Shown: positions 14,657-60,328 of the stretch, in pieces
Layout of the letters: the number at the start of each line of letters is the position of its first letter
Numbering within the stretch: the first letter of the stretch is position 1
Assembly: GCA_964648715.1 (NCBI GenBank)
Contig: CAZYNM010000002.1
Location: 25,056 to 89,055 of the forward strand
From: an uncultured Pseudomonadales bacterium
Lineage (GTDB): Bacteria; Patescibacteriota; Microgenomatia; UBA1400; PJMF01
Reading direction: 5' to 3'
Length of the DNA stretch: 64,000 nucleotides
Made by a program: the position numbers and the translations under genes
The notes under the pieces: model-generated
What the model saw: only the letters and a program-made list of their open reading frames with translations
Database searches by the model: none
Told to the model about the DNA's origin: nothing

Positions 14657-14668
14657 TTTTCAGTATTT

Positions 14669-42142: not shown

Positions 42143-42145
42143 ATT

Positions 42146-42577: not shown

Positions 42578-43047
42578 GTTTTACTCTCATTGAGATACTT
42601 GTGGTTGTAGCAGTAATTGGTGTATTGACTGCTGTTCTTCTTGTTAATATCACAAGCATACGTGAACGTGCTGCTGATACTAAAAAAATTCAAAAACTCG
42701 AGCAGTTTATGTTTGCGCTGCGTATGTATTACAACGATAATAAAAAATATCCTGAGACAGGTGGGCCGCAAAATGCGCGTAATATTACTGGAGCATCAAG
42801 CATATATATGAAGAAGTACTTTGGTGAGCTTATGTATTACAATCGTTTGCTTTCTCATAGGAATGCAGCAAATGAAATGCAGTTTGATGCAGTTGTGGCC
42901 TGCATAGTCGTTTCCAGTTCAAGCCAAAAAGAGATTGAGAGGTCGCAGGCAAAGTGCTTCCCCAATGGCATAGATGCAAACCAGGACAACGAACTTACTA
43001 TCTACAACTGCCGTAAGGCCACTTGCTACTGTGACTGTATCTTCTAG
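42565..43047 (+). CDS. Type IV pilin / pseudopilin
   Basis: MRQVGFTLIEILVVVAVIGVLTAVLLVNI (G|FTLIE). Overlaps the preceding pilin gene by 13 nt; Cys-rich C-terminus. Confidence 0.7.
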   Translation: MRQVGFTLIEILVVVAVIGVLTAVLLVNITSIRERAADTKKIQKLEQFMFALRMYYNDNKKYPETGGPQNARNITGASSIYMKKYFGELMYYNRLLSHRNAANEMQFDAVVACIVVSSSSQKEIERSQAKCFPNGIDANQDNELTIYNCRKATCYCDCIF

Positions 43048-43058: not shown

Positions 43059-44387
43059 TTATGGAGTTACTATCAAAGGAAAGTATAGGTAGTTTTTTTC
43101 TTCAACTGGTTTTTCTATCTCAGCAGGAAGTTGTGTGTGTGTATCAGGAGAACCATCTCCATTGGTATCGATAGCGATAGGAATATTAACATCAGCACCG
43201 TGGGACTGCTCTATAGCAGCGGCAACTTCACGTGTATTGAGACTTATGCTCCCAGAAGAAAATGAATCTGGACTGATGAAACTTTTGGTAGTTGTACCAT
43301 CCGCAAATCCTACGCTAAGTGTGAAGCCGTCTGCGTCGCCAGTTGTGGCTGCCACAGTGATATCATAGTCTGCGGTTGCAAGTGAGGTGGCCTCGGCTGC
43401 GCCCACTAATTCGTTGGATGAGAGCGATAGCTCTCCAGAAGTCTCAAAGTCTGACACTTCAACATGTGTGCCATCTGGACTGCTATTAAGACCAATGGTA
43501 TCACTCAACACAACCCCAGATATATCTAAGTTAATAGGAAGTGGAGTCGGGGATGATTGATCTGGAGTCGGAGTGATTATTGGTGTAGGCGTCAAATCTG
43601 GAGTTTCAGTAGGTGCTGTTGTTGCAGTTGACTCTGGGTTTTGAGTAGGCGCTTGAGTTGCAGTTGGCTCTTCTGTTGCAGTGGCTGCTGGAGTAGCTGT
43701 GGGCTCATCATCGTATGCACCAGCGCCTCTGAGCTGGAGTGCTGATTGGTGAGTGGTAGAAACCTCAACAGACGAAGTTAAATGTTCGCCTTCTTCATGG
43801 GTAAGTACTATTTTATTAAATAATTGATTGTTGGTATCAACAGTGTATACAGCTTTTTCTACCATATTTGGGCCAGTGGTAGAGAGGCTGGCAGTTTGAC
43901 CATCAAGAAAGGCCTCTGAGACTGATCCTTCTATGCCTGTTGTCGACATGCTGTCTTGTTGTGGATCCTCTTTGTGGATAGTTATTGGTTCATCCGCAAC
44001 TGGTTGATTATTCCTGTCATACACAGTGACTGAAATAATCGAGTACGTATCTTGTGAATGGTCTACTGTGGGAGTAGCTGTGGGCTCAGCTGGTGTAGGG
44101 GTAGCCGTGACATCTGCTTGTTGTTCACTTGTAGCGGTTGCAGTAGGTGCTTCTGGGGTGGGTGTGGAGACAGTAGGGGTTGGGGTCGCGGCTTCTGTTG
44201 TTGGTGTATCGGTAGGGTCAGGAATTGTTTGGTTAAATTCACGTCCTATGCTAGACCGATTGTTGATCACATTGAGCGCAGCATGAGCAACGGAGGGTTG
44301 ATCAGCACCATAGCTCATTCCTACGAACGCCATAAGAGCAGAAAGCAGCCCTGCCCCGATAAGTTGTTCACGCCGCAACATGCTCAT
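43059..44387 (-). CDS. Secreted Thr/Pro/Ala/Glu-rich protein (signal peptide, PT-linker repeats)
   Basis: MSMLRREQLIGAGLLSALMAFVGMSYGADQPSVAHA signal peptide; multiple TPTPT/ATATEEPTAT linkers. Starts 45 nt downstream of the giant gene stop on the same strand. Confidence 0.5.
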   Translation of the reverse strand: MSMLRREQLIGAGLLSALMAFVGMSYGADQPSVAHAALNVINNRSSIGREFNQTIPDPTDTPTTEAATPTPTVSTPTPEAPTATATSEQQADVTATPTPAEPTATPTVDHSQDTYSIISVTVYDRNNQPVADEPITIHKEDPQQDSMSTTGIEGSVSEAFLDGQTASLSTTGPNMVEKAVYTVDTNNQLFNKIVLTHEEGEHLTSSVEVSTTHQSALQLRGAGAYDDEPTATPAATATEEPTATQAPTQNPESTATTAPTETPDLTPTPIITPTPDQSSPTPLPINLDISGVVLSDTIGLNSSPDGTHVEVSDFETSGELSLSSNELVGAAEATSLATADYDITVAATTGDADGFTLSVGFADGTTTKSFISPDSFSSGSISLNTREVAAAIEQSHGADVNIPIAIDTNGDGSPDTHTQLPAEIEKPVEEKNYLYFPLIVTP

Positions 44388-44431: not shown

Positions 44432-47400
44432 TTAATTCACGATCCACCAGTTGAAGCTCACATCGCCAGAAACTGCGGCGTCAAACCCCACTACAAACTT
44501 ACCTTCTTTTTCTGAGGTAGAAATGTTTTCTGTTGTTTGTGATTTGACATACAGCACTTGATTTTGAGTACTGCCAACAGGTGTTACATAGATAAGTGAA
44601 GTATCAGTTATACTTTCTGACTCAATGGTGATCTCTGAAGTGCCAGCGGGAACTTTTGCTTTTCCAGAAGTCTTTTGTGCAGAAACAGTAACGGAACTGC
44701 CGCTCGCTACAGAAGGAACTGCTATCTCTTCACTCCCAACACCAATGCCTCCAGCAAAGTTGGCTTTACCTTCTGCAGAAATTGTTGCAACAGGGGTGCC
44801 CAGTTCATTGATAATCTCAAAGCGTGATTTTTTAAGCTCACCAGATTGAGTAGAAATACCAGCCACTTGCACCTGGAATGGATTACCAAAGTCAGCTGGC
44901 TGAATGAGATTGGTAAGCAATGTATTCGTTTTGGTTTTACCAGCAATAGTAAGATCACCAGCAATAGTTGCGGTACCGTTTTGGAGCGTGATGAGGCCCG
45001 CCAAGATCTCTACTTTTCCTGTTCCACTTGGCTGAATTTGTAATACGGTGGTAGCTGGTGAAGTGCCAGTATACGCAATCACGCCGTCAGTGATGATAGT
45101 ACCGGCTCCAATCTGTAATGTCTCGCCAATTCCCAGTGCCTTAGTAACATAGGCCACACCATTCACCTCGAGATACTTACGCACAAAGACGGCAGCTGAA
45201 TCAATAAGTACATCACCGGTCACGAGTGAAACACCTTCGTGCTCAGCAAAGAACGTAGGATTCACTGGAGTGTAACCAGCTGAGCTGACTGGCTCGTATA
45301 CACTTATTGGATTCGCAGCGGGTGGAGGAGTTGGTTCATTGCCAGTCAAGAGATCTATAAAATTAGGCTGCTGGATGGCGCTGGCAATCTTAGCATCAAG
45401 GTCAGCAATATTTTGCGCGTACAAAGTGCCAGAGACTGTTGCATCAAACAGTTCTGCTGTGGTAGCTTGAACCGCCATTAATTGTGCCTGTTGTGCCTCA
45501 ATTTGTGCCAAGCGAGTACTGCCTGATATGGTGAGATTTTGTGCAATAAGTTCACCACTGATACTTGCAGTTTGAGCTGTTAAGCTGCCACTAATACTTG
45601 CTGATTCTGCCAGGAGAACGCCCAGCTGACTTTGACCGGTTGCAGTGAGTGTCCCTGCAACACTTAAATCTTGAGTAGAGAGTTGATCTACCGTTGCAAT
45701 CTCAGCATGGAGGCTTCCACTTACCGTAGCAACTTGTGTAGTCAGAGTAGTGGCATCAAGATTGGCTACACTTGCTCGCTCACTCACAAAGAGTTCTCTC
45801 GTCTGAAGGAAGCTGGTCTTCATTTTTGCGCTCATTACCTGTGCTGCTGCAATAATGTTGCTCAGAACAGTGCCATTTTGTTGAGCAGTAATGGTGTAAT
45901 TTGATTGTCCTGTACCGTTAAAAACTAATTCACCCTCAGAACCAAAAATCATGTTTGGATAGTAGTATCCTGCATGGACGTATAATAGAATTTTTCCTTC
46001 ACCTTGATCTGTAGGATCAATAGGTTCAGCGTTAAACTTAGCAATATTATTTGCACGGAGTGCTTCTTGTTCACGTGTGCCTGTTGAAACTATTGGAGAG
46101 TTTTCATTGAAGCTCTCGATTGCGTAACCAATAATCTTACCTGGTCTAATCGCTTTTGCAGCTACACCTGGGGTAGAGGATTCGGTTAATGCGTCACCTG
46201 CGGAGATTGGTCCATTGCTCAGATTGACTCTTACTGGCACTCTACCTGCAAGACCTATAGCTACTGGATTCTCTGTCGAGCTATAAAGCTCATGACCGAG
46301 CGGCTTCCCAAACTGACCTACAGGGAAGGTTGAGACTACGCCAAAAACTGAAGCTCCTTGAATTGATGAAGAACTAACCAATGTTGGGACTCCACTAATC
46401 TCAGTGAGAGAGACAACATCTCCTGGTCTAAGGCCAGCTTCAGCTCGGTAAAACTCGGCAATATCTGATGGAGTACCATTACATTCTCTGAATTCTGTAG
46501 CCGTACTTGTGCCGTCTGCTGTATTTTTGCAGACACCGATTGTTGTGTCATTTGCGGTATCAATGTCAAACTGTATTTGTCCTGCGACGTCAAGTTTCTG
46601 TGAAGCTGATGTAGCGCCAATGCCCACATTCGCCCCAGAGTTAAAATAAGATACAGTTGCCGAGTTTGCAGATAGCTTCACATCAATGTTGCCACTGAGG
46701 TCTTTGATATTGATATCACCATCCTGTGTACTTCCACCACCAATGTAGAGGTCATTACCTCCTTCGCCATACCACATGCCTACCTGCGTAGTTGTTGTGT
46801 TTGAGACCTGGAATGTTGTGCTAGACCCGTAGACGTGAAGTTTTGCTGTAGGCCCTGTTGTACCAACACCCACGTTGCCGGAGCTGTATGCATAGGCATT
46901 GAGGGTGATAGGGCTGGTACCTTTGGATAAGAAATTGAGATCTTGGTTGGTGTTTGTACCGGCTTGATAAATGGTGTTGTAACCAAATCCGATACCTTGT
47001 GTAGCGTTATCGTGCCTGAACTCTATGTTACCTGTACCACCACCTGTTTGCCCACTTTGCATGGTGCCGGTAACATACATTGTCTGTGTGTTCGTATGCG
47101 TGCCCGAACGTGTCGCACCACGAATATCCAGTTTACCCACCGTACTTGTAGTGCCTATACCCAGATTGCCACCATTAAAGTAACTATCACCTGCAGAGTT
47201 AAGAGTAACCGCTGTAACTGCTGAAAGGTTAAGTACATTAATGTTTCCATCTTGTGTTGAACTTCCACCAATATAGAGGTTGTTATTAGATTCTGAGTAA
47301 TACATGCCTCTCTGTGCTGTGGTTGTGCTGGCAATTTGGAAAGTTGTGTTTGCACCATAGACATTGAGATTGGTATTGGGTACTGTTGTGCCAATACCCA

Positions 47401-50400
47401 CATTCCCAGAAAAGTACGTGCGTCCGGATGTGCCTCCTGCTATGGTAAGGTGTGCCGCAGTATCATTGCTAATGGTGCCTCTCTGGATTAAAGAACCAGC
47501 ATTGTATAAAGTTCCACCATTATTAAACATGCCAGATGTAAATTCACACAGGGTACTTGAACCGACATTATTTTGACAGAAAATATCTGGGTAATTTGCT
47601 GAGACAGATTGTTTGAGTACTAGAGCAACTTCGCTGGATGAGCCAGAATCTACCTGCAGTCTTCCGGAAGTAGATGTGGTTCCTACACCCACATTTCCTG
47701 AAGACAGAAGCACCAAGTTATTTCTCCAATCCCATGCCGCGCCTGTGTAGTAGCGTGTTTGTAAATACATCCTTCCTGATGCATCACCATTGCTACTATT
47801 GTCTGCTGCACCTAGAATGCGTGCCTGATCCCAAATATTAGTACCATCAGTATTTGCAGCTGAAGCAAATGCGAGAGCAGCACCGTTTCCTGCAGTTCGA
47901 TTGCCTGTTCCATAAATACTGGCGTTTGAAGTAGTCACCGAATTGGTGTCTGATGCAGACTTGGCAGCTCCTACAACGTTGAAAGTAGTTAATGGGTTAG
48001 TAGTGTTGATACCTACATATCCATTACTATCAATATTAATTCTGTCGGCACCTGCAGTGGAATCATAGATTCTTAAATTGGTGCTAGGTGTTCCATTTCC
48101 CGCAATAATAGACCAGACTCTATCTGTTCCTGTCATGGTTGTTTTGAGGGAAATAGCCGCATGTGCGTCGTTTGAGACTGGCTCAATATACAGTTGTCCA
48201 GTCCATGGTGATCCTGCCGTTTCATCTTTTCTAATGTGTAAGCCGTTATTGGCAGTTGTAGTACCAATACCCACATTTCCACCACTCAAGGCCAAGAATG
48301 CTCCTTGTGAAGTTGTAAGCTCGCCATAGGCAAGGTTCTTACCTTGATAGTAACCAACATTAAGATTACTGGCTGTCTCCACACTGGGACTTTCATCAAC
48401 ACCAGTGACATGTACGCTTGCGACATCCCATGTAAAGGCAGCATTTGATCCGCTATCAACGTACCAGAATCCTATGGTGCTCAGGGTGCCGCCAGTTCCA
48501 ATTGTCTGCACGATAATGTACTCTTGCCAGTTGCCCGTGCCGGCTTGGGAAGTTAACCACTGGTAGTTACCTCCTGTGCCATATGCGTTGTTTGCATAAT
48601 ATAACGATCTACCAGATGGGATGTTTGCCCATATGCGCACAACATAGCGGTTACCTTCTCGGTAACAGTATGTATTCACGCCATTATTGGTGCCACCACA
48701 CACAGGAATGCTAGCGTAAAAGCCACCATATCCTGGATTTGGGTTACTATTTGGAGTACCCGTTCCATTGTATGAAATACGCAGTGCTTGCCCAGAAGTA
48801 TTGGGGGCAGTTGTACTCGCAACTGCACTCAAAGTTGTCTTTCCACCAGCTGAGTTATCATAGACAGTGTATCCAGTGGTGCCATCTAACATTTCTGCAT
48901 TCCGGTTGATTAATCTCCCTGCCATACTACCCAGCAAGTTGATAAGGTAGTTGTTGCGAGAAGCACTGTAATTTGTGGAGTTTCTTAAGTAAATGGAGCC
49001 AACGTTTGCTACCGCACTTGCATCAAATGTTGTGTTACCAGAAAGAACGTTGTAATCAAGAGAAGTGCCGTTTGTAGTAATAGTTAAGCCGTTACTCACA
49101 CCGGTTTGTCCGGCACGGAAGATGTTTGCTGAACCTGCTGCTACCTGGGTATCAAGTTTGTATGACGCCCCTGTTGTGCCAATACCCACGTTACCAGCAA
49201 ATGTGTTGATATCAGCTGAGCCAGCCTGAAGAATACCGTATCCAGTCCCTACACCAGATACATCCTGTGGCCAAATATACGCACCCACTGCATTGGTAAT
49301 TGCTCCAGCAGTGACAGCGGGAGAATTAGCATTGAGACCAACAGCTGTTGAGATGGTGCCACCAGCATTATTAAGCTTTATCCCAGTGTCTACACCGATA
49401 GCAGTGGGAATGGTGCCAGATCCAGTACTTTGTGCATAGAAGTATCCAGCTGTTACATTGCCAGTATTGCTGTTGCTGACAGTACCCTTAATACCGTAAA
49501 TACTACCCGCACTGTTAAAGCTGGTAGCTCCTGTGTCAAAGCTGAGTACATAGCTGCCAAAACTTTCGGTTGCACTGTTAAGACGTAATCGACCATTACT
49601 ATCAACCACGAAGTTGTCAGAACTACCAACAGTAAGCAAACCAGAAGGTGTTGTATCACCCACACCAACATTAGTGCCGTCATCCCACAAGACACCAGTG
49701 CCGATAGAGCCGGTGCCAGTCCATCGGGCAACTCTGTTGGTGACGCCACTACCAGTGACGAAGCTACCAGAACAATCAGTCAATACACCACTTCCGTCTT
49801 TACACACTGCTGTTGTGGTGCCCGCACCGTATGTTCGTACACGTAAGGTACCATTCACATCAAGAGTATTGGTGGGGCCTGTTGTGCCAATACCAGTATT
49901 CCCGTTGTTGAGTAGGGTAAGTTTGGCGGCAAGACCATTATCACCACCCGGTGAGGTTTGGAAGTCAAGTCTTCCACCATTGAGCATATCAATTGTACTG
50001 ACGGTGGTGTTACGTAGTACCAGTGAGCCAGAAGCAGATGCATCGCCAGCCACATCAAGTTTGGCAGTTGGGGTAGTGGAGCCCACACCAACATTACCAG
50101 TACCATTTGGAGAAAGTATGATGTGTCCATTCCCCGCGTTTGTAGCCAAAGTAAGGTTCCCAGTGCTTGTGCGAATGGTTGAGGCACCATTGCTTTCAAG
50201 TTGCCCACCTGATAAAACACTCCATTTTAAACTGCCATTTGTGTTGAAGCGAACAGCGTTGGCACCCGTAGCACTTATATCTAGGTTCCCTGCGTATGTG
50301 TATAGTGGACTATCGACAGAAGTGTTGAAATAGCCAGTTCCATATTTGAGTGAAGCAGTACCAAGGTTTAAGCCATTATTTGTAGCAGGCTGCAGAGCGG

Positions 50401-53400
50401 TGCCATTTAGTTCCAATTCAGCTGTTCCTGATGAGGCACTAGTACCCCCAACTCTCCAGCGGAATGTAGAAGCACTCCAGTTGGTAAGGGTACTTGACTC
50501 GATACCAGTTCCATAGTTGGTAGAGTACCAGTAAATCTTATCTGTGACTTCATCTGCAAAATCAATTTGAACGCCTGTCCCTCCGGTAATATCGGCTCCT
50601 GAGACATCGACACCACTACTCACATCAAGGTTGCCAGTGATGTTTGTATTGCCATTAACATCGAGCTTGGCTATAGGTGCAATACTTCCTATTCCTATGT
50701 TCCCGTTGTTGAGGAGGGTAAGTTTGGCGGCAAGACCATTATCACCACCCGGTGAGGTTTGGAAGTCAAGTCTTCCACCATTGAGCATATCAATTGTACT
50801 GATGGTGGTGTTACGTAGTACTAGTGAGCCAGAAGCAGATGCATCGCCAGCCACATCAAGTTTGGCATTTGCGATGGTCGTGCCAATTCCCACATTTCCG
50901 GCAGTATCTATTCTCATTCGCTCAACACCATCTGTGCCGGCATTTGTGTAGAACTGAATGCCAGAGGCACTATTCGTTCTTGAAGACAATATGAGATGAC
51001 CGGTACTATCAACAATAATTTGTGCAGGCAGGACGTTGTCTACGACGCCTGTTGCATGTCCATAGCCAATCTTAAGACGTTCAGATGTATCCCCAATACC
51101 CACATAGTTTTCGGTATTGCTACTACCTGCCACGGTGAGCTTCTGTGAGGCAGTCGTGGTGCCAATTCCCACACTACCGGCAAATAATCCAGATGTACTT
51201 GTAAGGCCAGGCTCAATGTAGTAATTTTGACTATCAATATCAATGTAGCGTTTGGCATAGACATATCCAGACAAGTTTGAACCACCATTGCCACTACCTG
51301 TTACCCTAAAGGTTGCAGCGACGGTTGATGTTCCACCAATGGCTAAGTCACTGACAGCTCCATATTCATTCCGTGGGTGTAGAACATTTTCTGTGTTATC
51401 CCACCACCCAGAATCAAGGAGTGTCTCAGGGTTTATCCATGAAGTACCGGTTCCAGTAGAAGTGAAGATGTATCCGTTTGATCCTGGACTATTTGATGCA
51501 TCGTAGAGTGCCCCCGTAATACGAGCATTACCCGCTACATGTAAGCCCTGAGTAGGGGCAGTAGTGCCTATACCAACACTTCCCATAAACCAGTTAGTGC
51601 CAGTTCCACCAAAAGTTGCATGAGCATTGCCGCCATTATTGATTTCGCTCCCACTCATGCTCTTGGTAGCCCAGTCAACTACAGAGAAAGTGCCACGATG
51701 TCCTTCACCGTGACCAGAAAGAACTTCCATGACCGTTACTTCAACAGAATCATCAAAGTTTCCTGCGGCAGCAGCGCGGTCATCATCGGTGAGCGTCCAT
51801 TGAATTTCTAAGTTAGCACCCGAGTTAGTAACTTCGTATGCACGAACTTTCTTGGTACCAGAAATACGTTGCATGGTATATGCATACCCATTGCTGTTGT
51901 ATTGTGCCTGGGTACCAAAGTACCATACTTCATCGAGTTGGATGTTTGAGTCGTCTCTGGCTTTAAAGTAGATCATGAATGAAGCAGTCCCATACCCACC
52001 TCCTGTACTATCTGCGTACTTCAAAACCATTGGTGCATTGGCTACGTTGTAGGTTTGTGGTCCATACTTGTAACGCATCAATTGAGTCCCTGCTACTTCA
52101 AATGCAGGGAGTGTAGTTCCTGCTATTTCCAACACTGAACTTGGTGTCGTTGTTCCAATTCCCACGTTGCCTCCACTTGGCTGAATATTGACGTAGGAAC
52201 TGGTTCGTGTCGTGTGGCTTGTACCTTGAATGACCAGATCCCCATCGGATCCTGATGATCCATTCAGTGTGCCTCCAGTTGCACTTGCACCAAGAGTGAT
52301 AACAGCACTGTTACCCAAGTTGAGTGCTGTTGTGGAAGTCATACCCAAAGTTGCATTCGTAGTAAAGGTTGCTAGTGAAGAAGCGGTGATGGTGCTAGTT
52401 CCTGATAATGTCGTGGTGCTATTGCTTAATGTAGTCGTTGATCCAAGGGTCAGACGAGTTGCATCTCCAGAGTCAGTGATGAGATTCCCTCGTACACGCA
52501 GGTTACCACTAATATCTAGCGATTGAGCAGGCGTTGTAATATTACCAATACCTATGTTCCCATTACTTGCAATAAATATTCTTGAGGTAAGACCAGCATT
52601 GCCCCCGGGACTTTGACGTATATTAAGTGTGCCATCATCCAGAATATCAAGTGTAGAGCCAGGAGTTGATCCAGTTGGTACGGTGAGTGCAAGGTTACCA
52701 GAAATCGAAGCTGTGGGTGAACCAGCTGCAATATTTGTAAATGCAAACTTGGCTGATGCAGTTGATGTTCCGCCAATAAGCACGTCAGCGACACTTGCAA
52801 ACTCATTACGAGGGTGGAATGCGTTTTGGTTGTTTTGCCACAAGCCAGCGTTACTACAGTTGCCAGAAAGGTCACATACTTGGTAGTTGCCCTGATATAA
52901 GGCAGTACCATAAATGTTGTTCCAACGAAGTGAGTTTGAACCCAGGTTGTAGGTAGTCGTGGCAGATGGTCCCACATCACCGCCAACTTGAAGTTTAAAC
53001 GAAGATGCAGAGCCATCATTAATACCTACATTTCCTGCTGCATCAACATAGATGCGTTGGGTGTTGTTGCTGATGATGCCAAAACTATGGTTGGATTCAG
53101 TTCCTGCATACCCAAAAGTATCAAGGGCCTGCAATTTAGTAATAACATTGTTCGTGCTATCTTGTGCGCGTAGGTATGGATTGGTGGGACCAAATGAGCG
53201 TATGGAAGCAGTGCCTGTACTTTGAACATCGAGTGTTTGGCCGGGTGAATTGGTCCCTACACCTATACTGCCTCCAGAAGAAATGAGTGTGGGAGTAGCG
53301 GTGCCAGAAGTATTGATTGCTACGGTTCCTGTTGCTCCAGATAGGCCACCAATCACGATACCGCCACTGGCACCATAGATATCGGGGGTTGTGTAACCAG

Positions 53401-56400
53401 TGCCAGCACTCCTATTTAAGATCAAGGAATGAAGATTAGAGGCAGCAGCATTTTCAGAAAGATAATAGGTGCCACTACCATCCAGACTTACTCTGTTGCC
53501 GGTACTATTGAGTGTTAAGTAACCATTTGTGTCAGTGCTAACGTTGGCATATACAGCACCACTGTAATTTAAGCGCAACTGGGTACCTGTTGATTCAATG
53601 GTTGTTCGAGCATTAGATGTAGTTGTGGTACCTATACCTACGTTTCCTGCTAGAACTCCTGCCGTTGTAGTGTTACCAGGTTCAACGTAGTAGTTGGCGT
53701 CCTCTACGTCAAGGTAGCGACGGGCATAGGTGTAGCCGCTCAAGTTTGTTGTCCCATTGCCTTTGCCTGTAACTCGGAATCCAGCAGATGCGGTAGATGT
53801 ACCACCCACAGTCACGTCTACAACTTCTCCCCATTCATTACGAGGATGATAGACGTTATCTGTGCGGGCCCATAGACCTGAAGTGGTACAGTTGCCTGAG
53901 CTGTCGCAAACATCATTCCCAGCTTGTTTAAAGGATGTTGCATACACAGTAGCCCATCGAAGTGCATTAGAACCTAAATCATAGCTATTGTTTGTTTGCG
54001 GACCAATGGATCCATTCACTTGGAGCTTGAAAGTTGAGGGATTCGTTGTCCCTATACCCACATTGCCCAAGTTACTGACGCGCACCTGTTCTGTTCCTCC
54101 AGTCGATATAGCGAAGTTACCAGAGGAGGGCAGGAAACTGCCCGTTGTTGCATCACTCGAGAAGGTTTGTGCCGGTGAACCCGCGTTGCCATTGGCTGTT
54201 TGAAGTATTCTGCCTGAAGTGAGAACTGTTGTTCCACCAATTGCAAAGTTATCACCGGTAGCGATGGACAGAGTGTCGGTACCGCTTCGGTAGAGATCAA
54301 CGTCACTTCCAAAACCGATGCCACCTGTTACAGCAGTGTGGTCGGCGAGTTCAATCTTGTTGTTAATGGTGCTCGTGCCAAATCCAATGTTGCCAGCGAA
54401 GTATGATGGAGTATTTGTACCTGCTGAGTAAATTGCATAATCTAATGAAGATCCTTTGGCTAATGAGTCAATATAAATACCGTAATTGTTTGTGATGGCT
54501 CCTGCACCTGTGGGATCAGTGATTCTTATCCCATAAACATCAGTGATGGTTGCACCAGAACCAACAGCCAAGGACTCATAATATGCATGGTATGAACTGT
54601 TGGTATTATTGACTGTTGCCTGGGAATTAACTCCGTATACTGTAGTGGAGCTATCAGTGAAAGTTGGCGATGAATAGATACCAACTCTACTTAAATAGCC
54701 TGCGCTGCCTGCTGCGATTCTTGATGCAGCATTATTGGCAAGAAATGAGCCTGTAATAGTAAGTTGTTGAGAAGGGGTTGCGCCAATTCCCACACTACCT
54801 GCAAATACACCAGCAGTTCCAGTATTACCCGGCTCAACGTAATAGTTAGTGTCATCAATATCAAGATAGCGTTTTGCATACACATATCCAGGCAGATTTG
54901 TTGTACCATTTCCTTGACCAGTCACTCTGAACTCAGCAGAGAGAGTAGCTGTTCCTCCAATGAGTAAGTCTGCAACCTGTCCAAACTCATTGCGAGGGTG
55001 GAGTGCATTTTGATTGTTTTGCCATAAACCAGCGTTACTACAGTTGCCTGAGCTGTCACACACTTGATAGGCAGTCCCTGATTGGTACTGGTACACTGAA
55101 GCACCATAGATAGAACCATCTGCTTCTATGTTACTCTGTACATACAGATCAGCACCAGCGGTAGGGTTGGTAAACGTAAATCCAGTTGTGGCTACGTAGG
55201 TATCACCAGCCACCTGCAATCTCCCGTTACTTGTTGTGGTGGTACCTATGGAAATGTTTCCAGCACCATCTATACGCATTCGTTCGGTGAGAGCTGTGTT
55301 GTTACTGGTATATAGACCTAAAGTATCAGCAGCTGCATAGCCAACAGCAGCACCATCTGCAGCAAGTGTAGATGCACCACCTGGACCAAAAGAGATTGCA
55401 GCTTGTCCACTTCCAGCACCGTCTCTCCCAATCTGGAAACGAGGGTTGGCCTCTGCCTGGTAGTATTCGGCAAATGCGCCATTTGCGAACCTAAAGTTTC
55501 CACTTGATACATCAAAAACTTGTAGTTTGGCGAGTGGTGCAGTAGTTCCAACACCAAGATTTCCGTTAGAAAGGAGAGATACCTTTGCGGCAAGACCATT
55601 GTCACCACCCGGTGAGGTCTGGAAGTCAAGTCTTCCACCATTGAGCATATCAATTGTACTGAATGTAGTACTGCGTAGTACCAATGAGCCAGAAGCAGAT
55701 GCATCACCTGCCACATCAAGCTTGGCACGAACATTTGCAGCAGTAACACCTATACCTAGATTGCCAGCGGCATTGCCACCTGTAAGGGTCATGCCTACTG
55801 CATTGTTGGTGACAAAGTTGATGCTGCCAAAAAGTCCTCCAGCGGCGGTGTAGTTATTTACGATATTTGTATCAATATATGTGCCATAGCGGAAGGGCGA
55901 GGTACTACTATTGTTTTGTTCAAAATCACTGGTATTTGTCCCCGCAGTTACTCTACTAATAGTACTACCACCACCGTTCACAGGTGCACTCTGGATGTTT
56001 GAGAGTACTAAGTTTGTGCCTGTTGCAAGTGAATCATAGACATTGAGTCGAGCGCCAGGACTCGTACTGTTGATACCAATATTGCCGTTATTACTAATGT
56101 AGAGACGTGAGTTTGTTACTGCATCTCCACCAACCGATGTCCGGAAGTTAATACTGCCACCATTAAATGCAGTGTACGTTGTAGTGGGGTTAGAGCCTGT
56201 TGGAGAAGCGATGGCCAAGTTGCCTGATATACTAGCCGTTGGTGTTCCACTCATGACGTTCATGAATGCAAACTTTGCTGATGTTGTTGCATTTCCACCA
56301 ATCAGCACATCAGAGTTGTTTGTATAGGGAGAGGAAGGAGAAATAGCACCATTAACGTACTGCCAGAAATTGCCTATAGCAGAACAATTGCCAGACGTAT

Positions 56401-59400
56401 CACAGACTTGGTTATTTCCTTGGTAGATGGTTGTGCCATAAATATTGTTCCATCTCAGGGCATTTGATCCAAGGTCATAGGTGGCGCTTGCTTGTGGTCC
56501 AACACCCCCCTGCACTTGTACTTTGAAACCTGTAGCAGCTGTGGTGCCAATTCCCAAATTGCCTCCAGCTGAAACAAGTGTTGAGGTTCCGCTTGATGTG
56601 TTGAGAACATTATTGCCCGCACCGGTGGTAACAGAGTCATAAAAGTAAAAGCCAGAAGTTGCATCGGTATCGACATGCGCATACGTCGCATTCTGTGCAC
56701 CAATACGGACAAACTTTCCAGAAGATACTAAGTTCAGTGGATACTGTGATGTGGCACCTAAGTCGACATGAAGCGCATAGGCTGGTGCAGTCGTCCCAAT
56801 ACCAACACTTCCTCCAACTTGTCTGATGGCTGTTGCACTATAGTACGCAGTAGGAGCAGCAACACTTGAAGTAGAGGTTGATGCAGTAAAGCTATCTGTG
56901 TGGATGCCTTCTTGTCTAATGACAACATACGCTGTGCCAGCTGTGGAACCTGCCGTGCGGCGTATTCTCAAAGATGTAGTCCCGTTATTGACGTTTACAT
57001 CAAGATCAAAATCATTTGATGAGTACACACCTGTGTCACTGATAGGTTGTGCAATCACCCAGGTATTAGTTGTTTCGTTATATGCAATAGGGATGTTGTA
57101 TTCTTTTGCTACAGAAAACGAGCCGCTTGGTACCGTGATTGAAACCCAGAGAGAAGCCCCACCATTTGTAAAGCTAAAAGAACCAATGTCTACAACATCA
57201 TTCACCACTGTTGGCATGGTGCGAGTCATAGTCCGGGTTCGAGCATTGTTCTGTAGAATATCGCCCGCGACTTGGAGTGTTTCTGTAGGGTTAATGGTCC
57301 CTATGCCAAAATTACCATTACTAAGTAACGTTAGTTTACTCACCAGGCCAGCGTCACCACCAGGTGATGTTTGAATGTCGAGGCGGTTACCGTTGAGGAT
57401 ATCAATTGTTGATGGGTTGGTGCCTCTTAACACAAGAGAGCCAGAAGCGGATGCATCTCCTATAACATCAAGCTTCGCTCTGGAGACTGTAGTACCAATA
57501 CCAACGTTCCCTTCTACAAGTAGTCCTTGAGTAGGAGGAGTAGTTGTTAGGTATGTTCCAGATCCAATTCCAACACCTCCCGCAGCATTGATTGCCATTC
57601 GTACATTACTATACCCGCTGGTATAAAAGCGTAGATTGGTTGCTTGATCGGTCCCCATTTCGAATACACCAGAGTTTCTGGGGAAGTAAGAGAAAATTGG
57701 ATTGGTGGTACTGTAGGTATCATTGTAGATTTGGGCGGCATAGGGTGTTTCACTGGGTGCATGAATGCCCAGTGCAGTAACAGATCCGGTAGCTTTTACT
57801 TCTAGTGTATGGGTGGGAATCGTCGTTCCTATACCAATATTGCCGTTATTATTGATGTAGAGACGTGAGTTTGTTACTGCATCACCACCAACTGATGTGC
57901 GGAAGTTAAAGGTACCGCCATTATAGGCAGTGAACGTAGTAGCAGGATTGGAACCAGTTGGAGACGCAATAGCAAGGGTACCTGAGATGGAGGCAGTGGG
58001 TGTGCCACTATTTACATTGATAAAAGCGAACTTTGCTGCACTTGTTGCATTGCTACCTAAGAGGAGATCTGCTACACCCGCATATTCAGCTCTTGGGTGT
58101 AGCGCGTTCTGAGTATTATCCCACCACCCAATGTCATACAGAGTATTCCCATCTACCCATTGGGTGGCACTACCGGTGCTTTTGAGCACATACCCATTTG
58201 TTCCGACTGAGTTGGTGCTGTCATACAATCCACCTACTAGACGCATATTGTTCTGGACATGCAGAGACTGAGTAGGGCCAGTTGTTCCTATGCCCAAGCT
58301 TCCTTCAAAAATCGCATTGTTTGCGCCCGGATTAGTTGAGTAGTAGGTACTTCCAAAAGAAAGCCCTCCGGCTGCACTTATCTGCATTCTGTTTGTATTG
58401 TTGGTATAGAAGCGCAATGGGGAGTTTGAACTTAAACCAAGATATCCATCAGAGGAAGTTACACCCTGCTCAAGTGTATGGGTGGTATTAGTAACTGTTT
58501 CTTGTACCGTTCCCGAAGTCCCGTAGAGAACGAGCTTTGTGTTGGGATTTGTGGTGCCCAATCCAAGATTACCGTTATTTAGTATCGAAACTTTACTCGC
58601 AAGGCCCGCATCGCCCCCTGGGGAGGTATTGATATCAAGCCGCTGCCCATCAAGTACATCGATTGAAGAAGTTCCTGTTCTGAGTACAAAACTTCCAGAT
58701 ACAGATGCGTCTCCTGCTGCATCAAGAGTAGCTCTTGTACTCGTTGTTCCAATGCCGATATTGCCCGTGGCAGAAATAACACCCAAGGTACTTCCTGCGC
58801 TTGATTGCCATTTAACAATATCCGCTGTCGCGCTGGGGCCAGCTTTGAGGGTGAGGGCAGTGCCTCCAGCATAGGTTGCAGATAGCGTCGCTCCTGGTGC
58901 ACCGATATAATCTCGAGCAATGATTTGTCCGAGACCGTCTGGGTCAAGCACAATGTTGCCGTTTGATCCAGATGTCGTCTGCAGGTTGAGCGTCGTTCCC
59001 TCGAGAGTGAGCGAAGTGCTAGAAGCCTTTAATTTGGGCGTTGCTCCACCGAGTACTACCTCACCACTGTTATTCATAACAACCACCGTATTTGCGGTGG
59101 CGGGGTCTGCAGGTGGAAATCCTTGAAGTGTTTCAGAGTTGAGTGCGTATGCGACACTTTTAATGCTTTGACGGGGAGAGAGAGTCTCAGCACCTACTTC
59201 AACCTGTAACCATACGTTTGCATTCTCACTAAAGACGCTGGAGGCAATCTCTGTTCCACAATCTGAGCCAAGACCGGAAGAAAAAATGCCGTCTTGGTCG
59301 GGCGTAATGCTGCATGTGCCAGAATCCCATAACTGTGTGCCGCTTCCAGTCCCGGGACCTGAATCATAGAGACGGAACCTAAAGTTTGTAGCTGCTGTGA

Positions 59401-60328
59401 TAGGGTTTTGTGCTGTATCAGTCAAACGGCCTTGAAAAGAAAGCGTTCTATTGGGTCGCGTAAGTGTACTGGGGAATGCGAGTGGCTTATCTGGAGTAAC
59501 AATAAACTGTTGATAGCCAAAATAACTAAATGAAATCAAAAAGAGTAATATCATCGCTACATTTGCATAGCGAGTAATAAAAGAATCACCCTTCTTTTGA
59601 AGAGACTGCTGTAATAATCGTGCGTTTTCTTTGATGATTTGAGTGTATTCTTGTGATTTATTTGCCTTTTGTTTGTGTGTTAGATCTCCCTGAGGAGAAA
59701 GAAGCGCACTTAGTGAGAACCGCTTGCGTAGGCCACTGATAACTCGATCTCCTCTTAAGTCATGAGGTTGCTCATCATGACTGAGATTCTCTAACCAAGA
59801 ATAAGTACCGGCTGTGACAACACCTAGTGTTTCTAGCCATAAGCTAAATTGGGCTAGGCTCACTAATTTGCGTTTAATTGTAGCTCCCGCCAAGTTGCTG
59901 CTTCTTTGAGAGCGGATAAACTCGAGGACTTTTTGTTTAGTTAGGGTTTTTGTTAGTTCTGCTGATTTAGAAAATTCAATAAATTGATTGATATCACTGC
60001 GATAATTTTTTATGGTTGATGTTGAGCAGTTGGCAGACTTAAGTGCTAATAGGTATTCTGAGAGGAAGACATCCATCTGGGAAAGGGAAAATGAACTCAC
60101 AAACTGAGTCACACTGGTACACGCATTTTCAGAGAAGGAATGCTTCTTGGCTAGCTCTTGAATACAAGATGCTGGCTCTACAAAATCTGTTACAGAAACT
60201 AGTGAACGTAGTACAGTAACGAGAAGCGCATGTGCTTCTTCAAAACGAGAATCATCAACACCTATGGTCTTCATGAATGTAGAAAACAGTTTGCGGACGC
60301 TGGTGATATACAGTTCCTGGGCAGTCAT
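44432..60328 (-). CDS. Giant (5298-aa) repeat-rich fibrous cell-surface protein: N-terminal cytoplasmic integrase-SAM-like domain, single TM helix, >4900-aa extracellular tail-fibre-like repeat region, C-terminal coiled-coil-like segment
   Basis: A single uninterrupted 15,897-nt ORF. TM helix ANVAMILLFLISFSYFGYQQFIV (aa ~255-277). At least 25 copies of GN(I/V/L)GIGTTxP...L(D/H/Q)V. Several module families each repeated 3-5 times (e.g. VAGDASASGSLVLRNTTISTIDMLNGGRLDFQTSPGGDNGLAAK...; PRNEFxxVxDxxIGGTxTxSAxFRVTGxGNGTTNLxGYxYAxRYLDxDxxNYYxEPGNTxTAG). Recurrent QVCDxSGNCS Cys pairs. Confidence 0.85.
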   Translation of the reverse strand: MTAQELYITSVRKLFSTFMKTIGVDDSRFEEAHALLVTVLRSLVSVTDFVEPASCIQELAKKHSFSENACTSVTQFVSSFSLSQMDVFLSEYLLALKSANCSTSTIKNYRSDINQFIEFSKSAELTKTLTKQKVLEFIRSQRSSNLAGATIKRKLVSLAQFSLWLETLGVVTAGTYSWLENLSHDEQPHDLRGDRVISGLRKRFSLSALLSPQGDLTHKQKANKSQEYTQIIKENARLLQQSLQKKGDSFITRYANVAMILLFLISFSYFGYQQFIVTPDKPLAFPSTLTRPNRTLSFQGRLTDTAQNPITAATNFRFRLYDSGPGTGSGTQLWDSGTCSITPDQDGIFSSGLGSDCGTEIASSVFSENANVWLQVEVGAETLSPRQSIKSVAYALNSETLQGFPPADPATANTVVVMNNSGEVVLGGATPKLKASSTSLTLEGTTLNLQTTSGSNGNIVLDPDGLGQIIARDYIGAPGATLSATYAGGTALTLKAGPSATADIVKWQSSAGSTLGVISATGNIGIGTTSTRATLDAAGDASVSGSFVLRTGTSSIDVLDGQRLDINTSPGGDAGLASKVSILNNGNLGLGTTNPNTKLVLYGTSGTVQETVTNTTHTLEQGVTSSDGYLGLSSNSPLRFYTNNTNRMQISAAGGLSFGSTYYSTNPGANNAIFEGSLGIGTTGPTQSLHVQNNMRLVGGLYDSTNSVGTNGYVLKSTGSATQWVDGNTLYDIGWWDNTQNALHPRAEYAGVADLLLGSNATSAAKFAFINVNSGTPTASISGTLAIASPTGSNPATTFTAYNGGTFNFRTSVGGDAVTNSRLYINNNGNIGIGTTIPTHTLEVKATGSVTALGIHAPSETPYAAQIYNDTYSTTNPIFSYFPRNSGVFEMGTDQATNLRFYTSGYSNVRMAINAAGGVGIGSGTYLTTTPPTQGLLVEGNVGIGTTVSRAKLDVIGDASASGSLVLRGTNPSTIDILNGNRLDIQTSPGGDAGLVSKLTLLSNGNFGIGTINPTETLQVAGDILQNNARTRTMTRTMPTVVNDVVDIGSFSFTNGGASLWVSITVPSGSFSVAKEYNIPIAYNETTNTWVIAQPISDTGVYSSNDFDLDVNVNNGTTSLRIRRTAGSTAGTAYVVIRQEGIHTDSFTASTSTSSVAAPTAYYSATAIRQVGGSVGIGTTAPAYALHVDLGATSQYPLNLVSSGKFVRIGAQNATYAHVDTDATSGFYFYDSVTTGAGNNVLNTSSGTSTLVSAGGNLGIGTTAATGFKVQVQGGVGPQASATYDLGSNALRWNNIYGTTIYQGNNQVCDTSGNCSAIGNFWQYVNGAISPSSPYTNNSDVLIGGNATTSAKFAFMNVMSGTPTASISGNLAIASPTGSNPTTTYTAFNGGSINFRTSVGGDAVTNSRLYISNNGNIGINSTSPGARLNVYDSLATGTNLVLSNIQSAPVNGGGSTISRVTAGTNTSDFEQNNSSTSPFRYGTYIDTNIVNNYTAAGGLFGSINFVTNNAVGMTLTGGNAAGNLGIGVTAANVRAKLDVAGDASASGSLVLRSTTFSTIDMLNGGRLDFQTSPGGDNGLAAKVSLLSNGNLGVGTTAPLAKLQVFDVSSGNFRFANGAFAEYYQAEANPRFQIGRDGAGSGQAAISFGPGGASTLAADGAAVGYAAADTLGLYTSNNTALTERMRIDGAGNISIGTTTTSNGRLQVAGDTYVATTGFTFTNPTAGADLYVQSNIEADGSIYGASVYQYQSGTAYQVCDSSGNCSNAGLWQNNQNALHPRNEFGQVADLLIGGTATLSAEFRVTGQGNGTTNLPGYVYAKRYLDIDDTNYYVEPGNTGTAGVFAGSVGIGATPSQQLTITGSFLANNAASRIAAGSAGYLSRVGIYSSPTFTDSSTTVYGVNSQATVNNTNSSYHAYYESLAVGSGATITDVYGIRITDPTGAGAITNNYGIYIDSLAKGSSLDYAIYSAGTNTPSYFAGNIGFGTSTINNKIELADHTAVTGGIGFGSDVDLYRSGTDTLSIATGDNFAIGGTTVLTSGRILQTANGNAGSPAQTFSSDATTGSFLPSSGNFAISTGGTEQVRVSNLGNVGIGTTNPSTFKLQVNGSIGPQTNNSYDLGSNALRWATVYATSFKQAGNDVCDSSGNCTTSGLWARTDNVYHPRNEWGEVVDVTVGGTSTASAGFRVTGKGNGTTNLSGYTYARRYLDVEDANYYVEPGNTTTAGVLAGNVGIGTTTTSNARTTIESTGTQLRLNYSGAVYANVSTDTNGYLTLNSTGNRVSLDGSGTYYLSENAAASNLHSLILNRSAGTGYTTPDIYGASGGIVIGGLSGATGTVAINTSGTATPTLISSGGSIGVGTNSPGQTLDVQSTGTASIRSFGPTNPYLRAQDSTNNVITKLQALDTFGYAGTESNHSFGIISNNTQRIYVDAAGNVGINDGSASSFKLQVGGDVGPSATTTYNLGSNSLRWNNIYGTALYQGNYQVCDLSGNCSNAGLWQNNQNAFHPRNEFASVADVLIGGTSTASAKFAFTNIAAGSPTASISGNLALTVPTGSTPGSTLDILDDGTLNIRQSPGGNAGLTSRIFIASNGNIGIGNITTPAQSLDISGNLRVRGNLITDSGDATRLTLGSTTTLSNSTTTLSGTSTITASSLATFTTNATLGMTSTTALNLGNSAVITLGASATGGTLNGSSGSDGDLVIQGTSHTTRTSSYVNIQPSGGNVGIGTTTPSSVLEIAGTTLPAFEVAGTQLMRYKYGPQTYNVANAPMVLKYADSTGGGYGTASFMIYFKARDDSNIQLDEVWYFGTQAQYNSNGYAYTMQRISGTKKVRAYEVTNSGANLEIQWTLTDDDRAAAAGNFDDSVEVTVMEVLSGHGEGHRGTFSVVDWATKSMSGSEINNGGNAHATFGGTGTNWFMGSVGIGTTAPTQGLHVAGNARITGALYDASNSPGSNGYIFTSTGTGTSWINPETLLDSGWWDNTENVLHPRNEYGAVSDLAIGGTSTVAATFRVTGSGNGGSNLSGYVYAKRYIDIDSQNYYIEPGLTSTSGLFAGSVGIGTTTASQKLTVAGSSNTENYVGIGDTSERLKIGYGHATGVVDNVLPAQIIVDSTGHLILSSRTNSASGIQFYTNAGTDGVERMRIDTAGNVGIGTTIANAKLDVAGDASASGSLVLRNTTISTIDMLNGGRLDFQTSPGGDNGLAAKLTLLNNGNIGIGSIAPIAKLDVNGNTNITGNLDVSSGVDVSGADITGGTGVQIDFADEVTDKIYWYSTNYGTGIESSTLTNWSASTFRWRVGGTSASSGTAELELNGTALQPATNNGLNLGTASLKYGTGYFNTSVDSPLYTYAGNLDISATGANAVRFNTNGSLKWSVLSGGQLESNGASTIRTSTGNLTLATNAGNGHIILSPNGTGNVGVGSTTPTAKLDVAGDASASGSLVLRNTTVSTIDMLNGGRLDFQTSPGGDNGLAAKLTLLNNGNTGIGTTGPTNTLDVNGTLRVRTYGAGTTTAVCKDGSGVLTDCSGSFVTGSGVTNRVARWTGTGSIGTGVLWDDGTNVGVGDTTPSGLLTVGSSDNFVVDSNGRLRLNSATESFGSYVLSFDTGATSFNSAGSIYGIKGTVSNSNTGNVTAGYFYAQSTGSGTIPTAIGVDTGIKLNNAGGTISTAVGLNANSPAVTAGAITNAVGAYIWPQDVSGVGTGYGILQAGSADINTFAGNVGIGTTGASYKLDTQVAAGSANIFRAGQTGVSNGLTITTNGTSLDYNVLSGNTTFDASAVANVGSIYLRNSTNYSASRNNYLINLLGSMAGRLINRNAEMLDGTTGYTVYDNSAGGKTTLSAVASTTAPNTSGQALRISYNGTGTPNSNPNPGYGGFYASIPVCGGTNNGVNTYCYREGNRYVVRIWANIPSGRSLYYANNAYGTGGNYQWLTSQAGTGNWQEYIIVQTIGTGGTLSTIGFWYVDSGSNAAFTWDVASVHVTGVDESPSVETASNLNVGYYQGKNLAYGELTTSQGAFLALSGGNVGIGTTTANNGLHIRKDETAGSPWTGQLYIEPVSNDAHAAISLKTTMTGTDRVWSIIAGNGTPSTNLRIYDSTAGADRINIDSNGYVGINTTNPLTTFNVVGAAKSASDTNSVTTSNASIYGTGNRTAGNGAALAFASAANTDGTNIWDQARILGAADNSSNGDASGRMYLQTRYYTGAAWDWRNNLVLLSSGNVGVGTTSTSGRLQVDSGSSSEVALVLKQSVSANYPDIFCQNNVGSSTLCEFTSGMFNNGGTLYNAGSLIQRGTISNDTAAHLTIAGGTSGRTYFSGNVGIGTTVPNTNLNVYGANTTFQIASTTTAQRGMYYSESNNNLYIGGSSTQDGNINVLNLSAVTAVTLNSAGDSYFNGGNLGIGTTSTVGKLDIRGATRSGTHTNTQTMYVTGTMQSGQTGGGTGNIEFRHDNATQGIGFGYNTIYQAGTNTNQDLNFLSKGTSPITLNAYAYSSGNVGVGTTGPTAKLHVYGSSTTFQVSNTTTTQVGMWYGEGGNDLYIGGGSTQDGDINIKDLSGNIDVKLSANSATVSYFNSGANVGIGATSASQKLDVAGQIQFDIDTANDTTIGVCKNTADGTSTATEFRECNGTPSDIAEFYRAEAGLRPGDVVSLTEISGVPTLVSSSSIQGASVFGVVSTFPVGQFGKPLGHELYSSTENPVAIGLAGRVPVRVNLSNGPISAGDALTESSTPGVAAKAIRPGKIIGYAIESFNENSPIVSTGTREQEALRANNIAKFNAEPIDPTDQGEGKILLYVHAGYYYPNMIFGSEGELVFNGTGQSNYTITAQQNGTVLSNIIAAAQVMSAKMKTSFLQTRELFVSERASVANLDATTLTTQVATVSGSLHAEIATVDQLSTQDLSVAGTLTATGQSQLGVLLAESASISGSLTAQTASISGELIAQNLTISGSTRLAQIEAQQAQLMAVQATTAELFDATVSGTLYAQNIADLDAKIASAIQQPNFIDLLTGNEPTPPPAANPISVYEPVSSAGYTPVNPTFFAEHEGVSLVTGDVLIDSAAVFVRKYLEVNGVAYVTKALGIGETLQIGAGTIITDGVIAYTGTSPATTVLQIQPSGTGKVEILAGLITLQNGTATIAGDLTIAGKTKTNTLLTNLIQPADFGNPFQVQVAGISTQSGELKKSRFEIINELGTPVATISAEGKANFAGGIGVGSEEIAVPSVASGSSVTVSAQKTSGKAKVPAGTSEITIESESITDTSLIYVTPVGSTQNQVLYVKSQTTENISTSEKEGKFVVGFDAAVSGDVSFNWWIVN
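49900..50066. repeat. Intragenic direct repeat copy A (~165 bp) within the giant gene
   Basis: tcccgttgttgagtagggtaagtttggcggcaagaccattatcaccacccggtgaggtttggaagtcaagtcttccaccattgagcatatcaattgtactga... About 96% identical to copy B at 50700..50866. Confidence 0.8.
50700..50866. repeat. Intragenic direct repeat copy B (~165 bp)
   Basis: Near-identical to copy A (differences such as gagtaggg/gaggaggg, gacggtgg/gatggtgg, accagtg/actagtg); 800 bp downstream of copy A. Confidence 0.8.
55585..55730. repeat. Intragenic direct repeat copy C (~145 bp, ~90% identity to A/B)
   Basis: cctttgcggcaagaccattgtcaccacccggtgaggtctggaagtcaagtcttccaccattgagcatatcaattgtactgaatgtagtactgcgtagtaccaatgagccagaagcagatgcatcacctgccacatcaag. 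More diverged copies occur near 57340 and 58600. Confidence 0.7.

Follow-up and report, generated by a model that had tools for sequence, protein, structure and literature searches.

The question raised by this locus is whether near-identical repeats inside one giant gene share a recent origin at the DNA level and, if so, what kind of event made them alike. The window, that is, the whole stretch of 64,000 nucleotides (nt) analysed here (GenBank assembly GCA_964648715.1, contig CAZYNM010000002.1, positions 25,056 to 89,055), carries on its minus strand an open reading frame (ORF) of 5298 amino acids (aa), in which an initial annotation had pointed out the repeats. Two of them, copies A and B, do share recent DNA ancestry, and the signal is local, recent and sharp-edged. 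It probably reflects intragenic gene conversion between two pre-existing modules of the encoded protein, M4 and M5, as one instance of a homogenisation that occurs throughout the gene family. The ORF, the repeats and the modules to which they belong are located as follows.

44432..60328, minus strand: giant ORF, 5298 aa, encoding a putative membrane-anchored, tail-fibre-like surface fibre (ORF list and translation, PHROG, PDB, Foldseek).
49899..50066, minus strand: copy A, the near-identical core tract of M5, aa ~3422-3477 (165/168 identity to copy B, offset 801).
50700..50867, minus strand: copy B, the near-identical core tract of M4, aa ~3155-3210 (pairwise comparison with copy A).
49847..50098, minus strand: M5 in full, aa 3411-3494, with the bounding GNxGxG(T/S)T capping-type motif at either end (motif scan; 144.5 bits with the module hidden Markov model, HMM; predicted local distance difference test score, pLDDT, of 75-91 in the AlphaFold2 model).
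50648..50899, minus strand: M4 in full, aa 3144-3227, with the bounding motif at either end (motif scan; module HMM 149.7 bits; AlphaFold2 pLDDT mostly 77-93).
50099..50647, minus strand: unique spacer of ~183 aa between M4 and M5 (no internal paralogue in the protein self-comparison; pLDDT <50 in part).
55560..55727, minus strand: copy C, the core of M3, aa ~1535-1590, of intermediate divergence (86% nt identity to A and B).
57312..57479, minus strand: core of M2, aa ~951-1006, an old copy (68% nt identity; synonymous divergence, dS, of 1.5-2.7, i.e. saturated).
58568..58732, minus strand: core of M1, aa ~533-587, with a one-codon deletion, an old copy seen at the protein level only (module HMM 132.6 bits).

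Each tract is the core of an ~84-aa module lying between two GNVGIGTTxPxxKLxV motifs. With the module HMM, the protein shows five strong copies, at aa 522, 940, 1522, 3144 and 3411 (M1-M5, 133-150 bits), and three diverged ones. The near-identity of 49900..50066 and 50700..50866, put at ~96% by the initial annotation, is confirmed and amounts to 98% (165 of 168 bases, with a longest perfect run of 88 nt); this is the only pair within the giant gene with more than 90% nt identity. Both copies lie in one ORF and in the same frame, as had been stated, but the ORF is on the minus strand and the offset is 801 nt (267 codons) and not 800, at which just 43 of 167 bases match. A 62-nt pattern from the core has two exact occurrences and one with two mismatches, compared to none expected in shuffled sequence, and a repeat finder groups four copies into one family (49887-50098, 50688-50899, 55548-55759 and 57300-57511), spaced 801, 4860 and 1752 nt apart. 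Nine self-matches are detected at the DNA level within the gene, and every offset is divisible by 3, which is expected, because the copies encode the same module in one ORF. The third copy, expected at ~90% identity in 55585..55730, is 89% identical to A and B there (86% over the full 168-nt core, 55560-55727). The more diverged copies placed near 57340 and 58600 were also found: M2 has 68% DNA identity, equal to synonymous saturation, and M1 can be recognised in the protein only.

The boundaries of the A/B tract are abrupt. On either side, a few codons suffice for the nt identity to go from 98% down to ~50-67%, in line with the earlier remark that it exceeds the divergence of the surrounding module, and on both sides the edges lie ~6-7 codons from the bounding GNVGIGTT motifs. 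The DNA of the bounding motifs is ~63-74% identical between module copies, and the sequence outside the modules is neither alignable nor homologous between the copies. The 801-bp unit thus comprises one ~84-aa module and a unique ~183-aa spacer and is not a repeating unit. Simple tandem duplication of this unit was rejected, since the sequence beyond the 168-nt core is saturated or non-homologous; with such non-homology outside the modules, conversion is the better fit. The cores of M4 and M5 are flanked by complete, individually diverged motif pairs with a motif spacing of 64-65 aa, as in M1 and M2, which agrees with the replacement of an existing core.

The recent ancestry of A and B is seen most directly in the synonymous sites. 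Over the 57-codon core, M4 and M5 show a dS of 0.09 and a nonsynonymous divergence (dN) of 0.02, whereas the flanking motif codons, conserved in the protein, have a dS of 1.26 on the left and are saturated on the right. Among codons specifying the same amino acid, 3 of 55 differ between the two modules in the core and 11 of 15 in the flanks (Fisher p=1.9e-7). As a codon-usage null, both peptides were back-translated independently with the gene's own codon usage in 20,000 trials; 45.2±4.6 differences are expected for M4 and M5 and the minimum over all trials is 28, whereas 4 are observed, over 56 codons (z about -9). The low dS of the core against the saturated flanks, together with this null, means that protein constraint and codon bias are insufficient to account for the identity of A and B, and to this extent recent copying at the DNA level, most simply by the gene conversion proposed in the initial annotation, is supported. 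M3 is intermediate in respect to M4 or M5 (dS ~0.6; 25 differences versus 50±4.6 expected; a perfect run of 43 nt). M1 and M2 are synonymously saturated and indistinguishable from the null (for M2-M4, 55 differences versus 62, P=0.09), and 14 other paralogous module pairs in the gene are all saturated overall. As nearly all other module pairs are saturated, the A/B signal is both local and recent. The pair combines a tract dS far below that of its flanks and of the other paralogues with discrete edges, by which intragenic conversion is recognised. Separately, a local synonymous dip is observed in a different module type, between aa 1391-1426 (56051-56158) and aa 805-840 (57809-57916), where the proportion of synonymous differences (pS) is ~0.27 versus ~0.6-0.8 elsewhere; this is probably an older homogenisation event.

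Identity between A and B might also be maintained by constraint on the nucleotides themselves, if the tract contained a regulatory site, a structured RNA or an antisense gene, or if A and B were the template and variable repeats of a diversity-generating retroelement (DGR). One ORF on the plus strand does overlap copy A.

49614-50333, plus strand: 239-aa ORF with a TTG start, antisense to copy A (ORF list; no Pfam match).

This ORF is most likely a spurious open frame opposite a Gly/Thr/Ser-rich coding strand, and dN far below dS in the minus frame identifies the latter as the frame under selection. The folding z-scores of the two copies are -0.41 and -0.38, and no Rfam match is present in the window. 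Two of the four differences are an A in M4 and a G in M5, as might be expected of a DGR, but the complete set (A/G, A/G, C/A and C/T) is not adenine-specific, and no reverse transcriptase was found among the window ORFs scanned, in which the sole RVT_3 match is a 137-aa RNase H; a DGR target was rejected on these two grounds. In M1 and M2, moreover, the same codons have reached synonymous saturation. Constraint on the nucleotides is effectively refuted.

The sequence of events that we propose is the following. M1-M5 would be ancient paralogous ~84-aa beta-helix shaft modules in the N-terminally anchored fibre of an ultrasmall Patescibacteria bacterium, of the Microgenomates/Pacebacteria type to judge by the names of homologues. 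In a recent non-reciprocal homologous recombination event (intragenic gene conversion), the ~168-nt core of M4 or M5 would have been overwritten by that of the other, with the event halting ~6-7 codons short of the bounding motif on each side, and an older event of like kind may tie M3 to the M4/M5 pair. The RadA recombination protein encoded within the window counts in favour of recombination. As a by-product, A and B would form a substrate for unequal recombination or replication slippage, by which exactly 801 bp (267 aa) would be removed or duplicated. A direct repeat of 168 nt with an 88-nt perfect run is, in principle, a plausible substrate for such an in-frame change; in bacteria, a repeat of this length would suffice for RecA-dependent or slippage-type events.

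The protein to which the modules belong can be divided into an anchored N-terminal part, a long shaft and a C-terminal part.

59834..60064, minus strand: N-terminal phage-integrase SAM-like domain, aa 89-165 (Pfam PF02899, PF13495).
59498..59569, minus strand: single hydrophobic transmembrane segment, aa ~254-277, YANVAMILLFLISFSYFGYQQFIV (read from the translation).
44435..46657, minus strand: C-terminal ~740 aa, colinear in blastp with the protein of L003, the closest relative (52% identity).

The SAM-like domain is the sole Pfam match across the whole 5298-aa protein; no catalytic integrase domain was found alongside it in the Pfam scan, and no Pfam domain, including S74, is present at E<=0.01 in aa 2401-5298. 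The domain is predicted to be located in the cytoplasm. In that position a domain of DNA-binding type would sit on the cytoplasmic end of an extracellular fibre (59498-60328 of the window, minus strand, aa 1-277). The shaft, of ~4,300 aa, is rich in Gly, Thr, Ser and Asn and contains 28 copies of the GN(V/I)G(I/V)G(T/S)T motif (motif scan), which is absent from the C-terminal ~740 aa. In a chunked self-comparison the protein proves to be a mosaic of several recurring ancient module types, with no periodic array.

The relationship of the shaft to known fibres was followed by sequence and by fold. PHROG tail-fibre families 9942 and 18345 match the shaft, and with phmmer the module region retrieves the Bdellovibrio bacteriovorus proteins Bd2133 (8OND, E=4.5e-9) and Bd1334 (8OML, 8ON4), with ERMRIDTxGNxGxGT...P...L.V segments aligned. 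In the AlphaFold2 model of aa 3101-3520 the pLDDT averages 70, with values of ~75-93 in the modules and <50 in much of the spacer, and the top 14 Foldseek matches of this model in the PDB are all MAT fibres, at a probability of 1.0. The motif-bounded units align by both sequence and fold with beta-helix domains of the Bd2133, Bd1334 and Bd3182 fibres, and other proteins bearing the module often also carry Peptidase_S74 or Peptidase_G2 domains. The MAT structures show trimeric beta-helix domains delimited by capping loops, whose consensus resembles the motif of the giant gene, and are related to the fibres of phages T5 and K1F (PMC10769870). On this homology the label of a fibre appears supported for the 5298-aa protein, and by analogy it may assemble as a trimer. 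With MAT and phage S74-type fibres (PMC10769870; 8OND, 8OML, 8ONC) it shares the beta-helix units bounded by a G-x-G...P...L capping-type motif and the mosaic architecture, so that shaft domains of the MAT kind, bounded by capping-loop motifs, are found here too. The N-terminal part differs. The MAT fibres, of about 1,000 aa, have a signal peptide and a conserved beta-rich N-terminal domain of ~130 aa, present in all 21 MATs (PMC10769870), whereas here, in 5,298 aa, an integrase-SAM-like domain and a transmembrane anchor take the place of both. The MAT-type N-terminus is thus not what is found, the best PDB alignments of the module region lying in the shaft and the N-terminal region itself being outside that PDB search. 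Two further differences are the lack of an S74 domain by Pfam and the host, which is a Patescibacteria bacterium and not an outer-membrane predator.

Whether the A/B pair is an isolated case was examined in related genes. The module region itself finds no relatives among genome contigs, two loci only (28% identity) among metagenome contigs, and no match among viral contigs and GenBank phages. Exact-protein look-ups with four of the neighbouring genes gave no match either. The relatives were retrieved with the family-specific N-terminal region, and 80 of 436 related loci from representative genomes were sampled. Among the 54 family genes of at least 1,200 aa, 20 contain near-identical tracts (in-frame, at least 90 nt, at least 88% identity). 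Perfect dispersed blocks of 380-1,240 nt occur in L034, L050, L059, L065 and L071, and the identity at their edges falls from 1.0 to ~0.3 within 30 nt. In L036 (gene nt 2695-5801, locus ~12575-15681) a tract of 1,598 nt recurs at an offset of 1,509 with 2 mismatches; a 503-aa block is present twice in frame, with the boundary repeat DIFAINSSGNVGIGSSSPGYKLDVVGNTQ flanking the blocks in three copies. This arrangement, as read from the sequence, is the product one would expect of unequal crossing-over between two short direct repeats, and would represent the post-event state of what the initial annotation predicted for A and B. The predicted in-frame deletion or duplication of whole modules is therefore plausible in principle, with such events among relatives (L036, and tracts in 20 of the 54 genes), but the 801-bp step would take a module together with its unique spacer and not whole modules alone. 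The gain and loss of modules appears supported at the family level.

Several observations on the relatives stand apart. L050 (HK-STAS-PATE-15, 1.08-Mb contig, gene nt ~2500-9200) contains 121 self-matching pairs, some of them 100% identical over 1 kb, a homogenisation far more extensive than in the window gene. In L025 (gene nt ~3500-4650) FG-GAP-like tandem repeats of 67 aa (GDVNGDGYDDFIIGAYADEDGG...) share 91-100% nt identity, from which it follows that the shaft in this family can take up unrelated repeat types. The relatives are usually misannotated as 'site-specific integrase, partial'. Many family records are titled 'uncultured Pseudomonadales bacterium' despite genes and neighbours of the Patescibacteria type, and these taxonomic labels are evidently placeholders or wrong. 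No paper describing this Patescibacteria fibre family was found in the literature; the giant surface proteins of candidate phyla radiation (CPR) bacteria receive a generic mention only (PMC8080830).

The same sample bears on the possibility that the near-identity was created during assembly or polishing, by consensus building or by read mis-mapping between paralogous modules. Assemblers evidently struggle with these genes, as 42 of the 80 family loci are interrupted by a contig end inside the giant gene, and the source organism is uncultured. However, A and B keep 3-4 private differences, the contig runs through the unique flanks, mis-mapping presupposes copies that are already very similar, and the same phenomenon is met in many assemblies made independently, the megabase-scale contig of L050 among them. 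An artefact is very improbable as the source of the A/B identity.

The conservation of the family genes is uneven along their length. Genes with a stop inside the locus range from 1,331 to 3,296 aa, and 15 more are still open past 3,800 aa; lengths in the family run to over 4000 aa. The closest relative, L003 (65% identity in the best N-terminal segment), has a complete gene of 3,243 aa compared to 5,298 aa here; blastp shows the two to be colinear over ~850 aa at the N-terminal end (53%) and ~740 aa at the C-terminal end (52%), with no colinear counterpart for the 3,700-aa middle. The slot of M1 is occupied in L003 by a different module, with the switch directly after the motif. In the family-wide process that we envisage, module-scale tracts and multi-module blocks would be repeatedly copied and duplicated in frame, and both the length and the content of the central shaft would keep changing, between N- and C-terminal ends that are conserved. 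In phage and MAT fibres the tip is the most variable part. The comparison with L003, in which the presumed tip (44435-46657) is conserved and the shaft rearranged, is the reverse of this.

Sharp edges near motifs might also arise in another way, by template switching, in which one core would have been newly copied in by replication slippage or illegitimate recombination (duplicative insertion or replacement), with the DNA of the GNVGIGTT motif as microhomology and no RecA-type conversion. The distance of ~6-7 codons between both tract edges and the motifs speaks for it, as do the razor-sharp edges, often at a motif, of the perfect blocks in L034, L050, L065 and L071. The modules M4 and M5 may, besides, have been too diverged before the event (about 68-86%, as M2 and M3 are) to recombine efficiently by homology. 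Against it, both copies sit within complete, diverged motif pairs at the canonical spacing, insertion needs an empty motif-motif slot and none is seen, and the supposed microhomology is only ~63-74% identical between copies. We consider template switching unlikely. Distant relatives with a module-spacer-module arrangement (L002, P0045, P0049 and others) were rejected as a means of separating conversion from insertion, their similarity being generic to the periodic motif and not orthology.

A number of points weigh against gene conversion between M4 and M5 as part of a family-wide process. Conversion is formally inseparable from a precise duplicative replacement or insertion of the module core. 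As to donor and recipient, M3 sides with M5 at two of the four differing sites, with M4 at one and with neither at one, and the similarity of the right cap (28/42 vs 22/42) is not significant for direction. The family loci are metagenome-assembled genomes, and perfect repeats of >1 kb from short reads could partly be assembly artefacts, a concern tempered by the 2 mismatches in L036 and the 1.08-Mb contig of L050. The tract edges show just a modest enrichment near the motif and are not independent of one another, and trimeric assembly is deduced from homologues.

That enrichment concerns tract ends at most 8 aa from a motif, which make up 24% of the ends compared to 11% of random positions (p=1.5e-5). 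Since the ends are not independent, an enrichment near the motif across family genes is suggestive only. A further-reaching interpretation, in which the GNVGIGTT capping-loop motif would serve as a module-boundary signal at the level of DNA or of selection, and modules and blocks would behave as cassettes that are copied, exchanged and duplicated fairly often, has in our judgement a small chance of being correct.

A related idea is that the variation is programmed, i.e. that the repeats are kept under selection because frequent recombination between modules gives adaptive switching of fibre length or binding surface, much as in periscope proteins or in cassette-based antigenic variation. The recent tracts in 20 of the 54 family genes, the hypervariable shaft between conserved ends and the enrichment of tract ends near the motif would all fit. 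Yet the gene in the window has one recent pair only, 801 bp apart, with no tandem array, no silent cassettes are present in the rest of the window, and a passive by-product of repetitive DNA explains the pattern equally well. Programmed variation is quite improbable on this balance. Nor is there a basis, in an environmental Patescibacteria bacterium, for the antigenic variation suggested in the initial annotation: antigenic variation presupposes adaptive immunity, and a change in the length, the reach or the lateral binding surface of the fibre is the more defensible consequence.

Known systems of surface-protein variation resemble the giant gene in part. In the classical cases of the streptococcal M, alpha C and Rib proteins the process is similar to that of the giant gene. 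Periscope proteins (Rib/alpha C, SasG/Aap, SHIRT-domain) are surface stalks in which repeat tracts expand and contract by homologous recombination; the definition requires a monomeric chain with an array of tandem repeats of very high identity, and expressly leaves out multimeric stalks (PMC9704523). The likeness lies in an anchored rod-like surface protein, in near-identical repeat DNA as a substrate for in-frame length change, and in a gene length that varies strongly among relatives, here distant ones. The difference is that a tandem array is absent here, with two dispersed 168-nt tracts separated by a unique spacer and the other modules saturated, and that the fold is that of trimeric beta-helix fibres; the alignment with such fibres suggests that the giant fibre would be a trimer, unlike the monomeric periscopes.

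The genes of phage tail fibres (T-even gp37/gp38, P2/Mu/P1) undergo mosaic exchange and duplication of segments, with breakpoints clustered at short conserved motifs. Exchange and duplication of segments at short motifs is the common trait, but in phages the exchanges take place mostly between genomes or genes, and here within one chromosomal gene. With cassette systems of antigenic variation (Neisseria pilE/pilS, Borrelia vlsE, Anaplasma msp2; PMC4534519) the giant gene shares the non-reciprocal transfer of short tracts into an expressed surface-protein gene. Those systems rely on silent donor arrays outside the expression site and on high-frequency switching under immune selection (PMC4534519), whereas here the donor, like the recipient, would be part of the expressed ORF itself, and the two copies became alike, not diverse. 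A search for silent donor cassettes in the rest of the 64-kb window, by blastn with the gene and tblastn with the module, gave no match.

The neighbourhood of the giant gene is chromosomal (dnaA-dnaN, yidC, leuS, rho, obg, radA), and the presence of dnaA-dnaN places the window near the chromosomal replication origin. The genes located in the window include:

5744-8594: dnaA-dnaN.
3655-5655 and 29881-32019: two ATPases resembling TraG/TrwB-type coupling proteins of type IV secretion.
28495-29877: RadA.
32547-33299: sortase.

Upstream of the giant gene are a divergent 252-aa ORF (60864-61622), found in 64 of the 80 family loci, and a Big_13/CarboxypepD_reg protein (62045-63955), found in 53 of them. 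Directly downstream, co-directional and after a gap of 44 nt, lies a 442-aa ORF (43059-44387, minus strand) in which Pfam detects no domain and which has no equivalent at any of the 80 related loci; it may be a lineage-specific partner or cargo gene. Further downstream are four type IV pilin-like genes (41100-43047) and a tetratricopeptide repeat (TPR) protein (38885-41005); three of the pilin genes and the TPR protein each match 10 of the 80 loci, and the fourth pilin gene matches one. This arrangement suggests that the fibre is functionally linked to a type IV pilus or pseudopilus.

In general, the homogenisation of A and B is a real, ordinary kind of evolutionary process in an under-described gene family. 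That repeats in surface proteins are homogenised and mediate changes in length is well known; what is added here is one more example, and a pattern at the level of a family, with no new principle. Patescibacteria rely on attachment to host cells, and the surface structures used for it are almost uncharacterised. The family is large, with 436 relatives in representative genomes, and would comprise giant anchored fibres built of modules like those of Bdellovibrio prey-recognition fibres and phage tail fibres. Recent intragenic copying in the shaft offers an explanation both for the four-fold differences in length between relatives and for the fact that about half of the assemblies break inside these genes. 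The 801-bp junction is a concrete target for strain-resolved long-read work. If the reading of the motif as a module-boundary signal were true, the family would be a trimeric-fibre analogue of the periscope proteins and of phage tail-fibre mosaicism, inside a chromosomal family of more than 400 members, and these episymbionts would possess a built-in means of retuning the length and the lateral binding surfaces of their fibres, and with them host range, while the anchor and the tip are kept constant.

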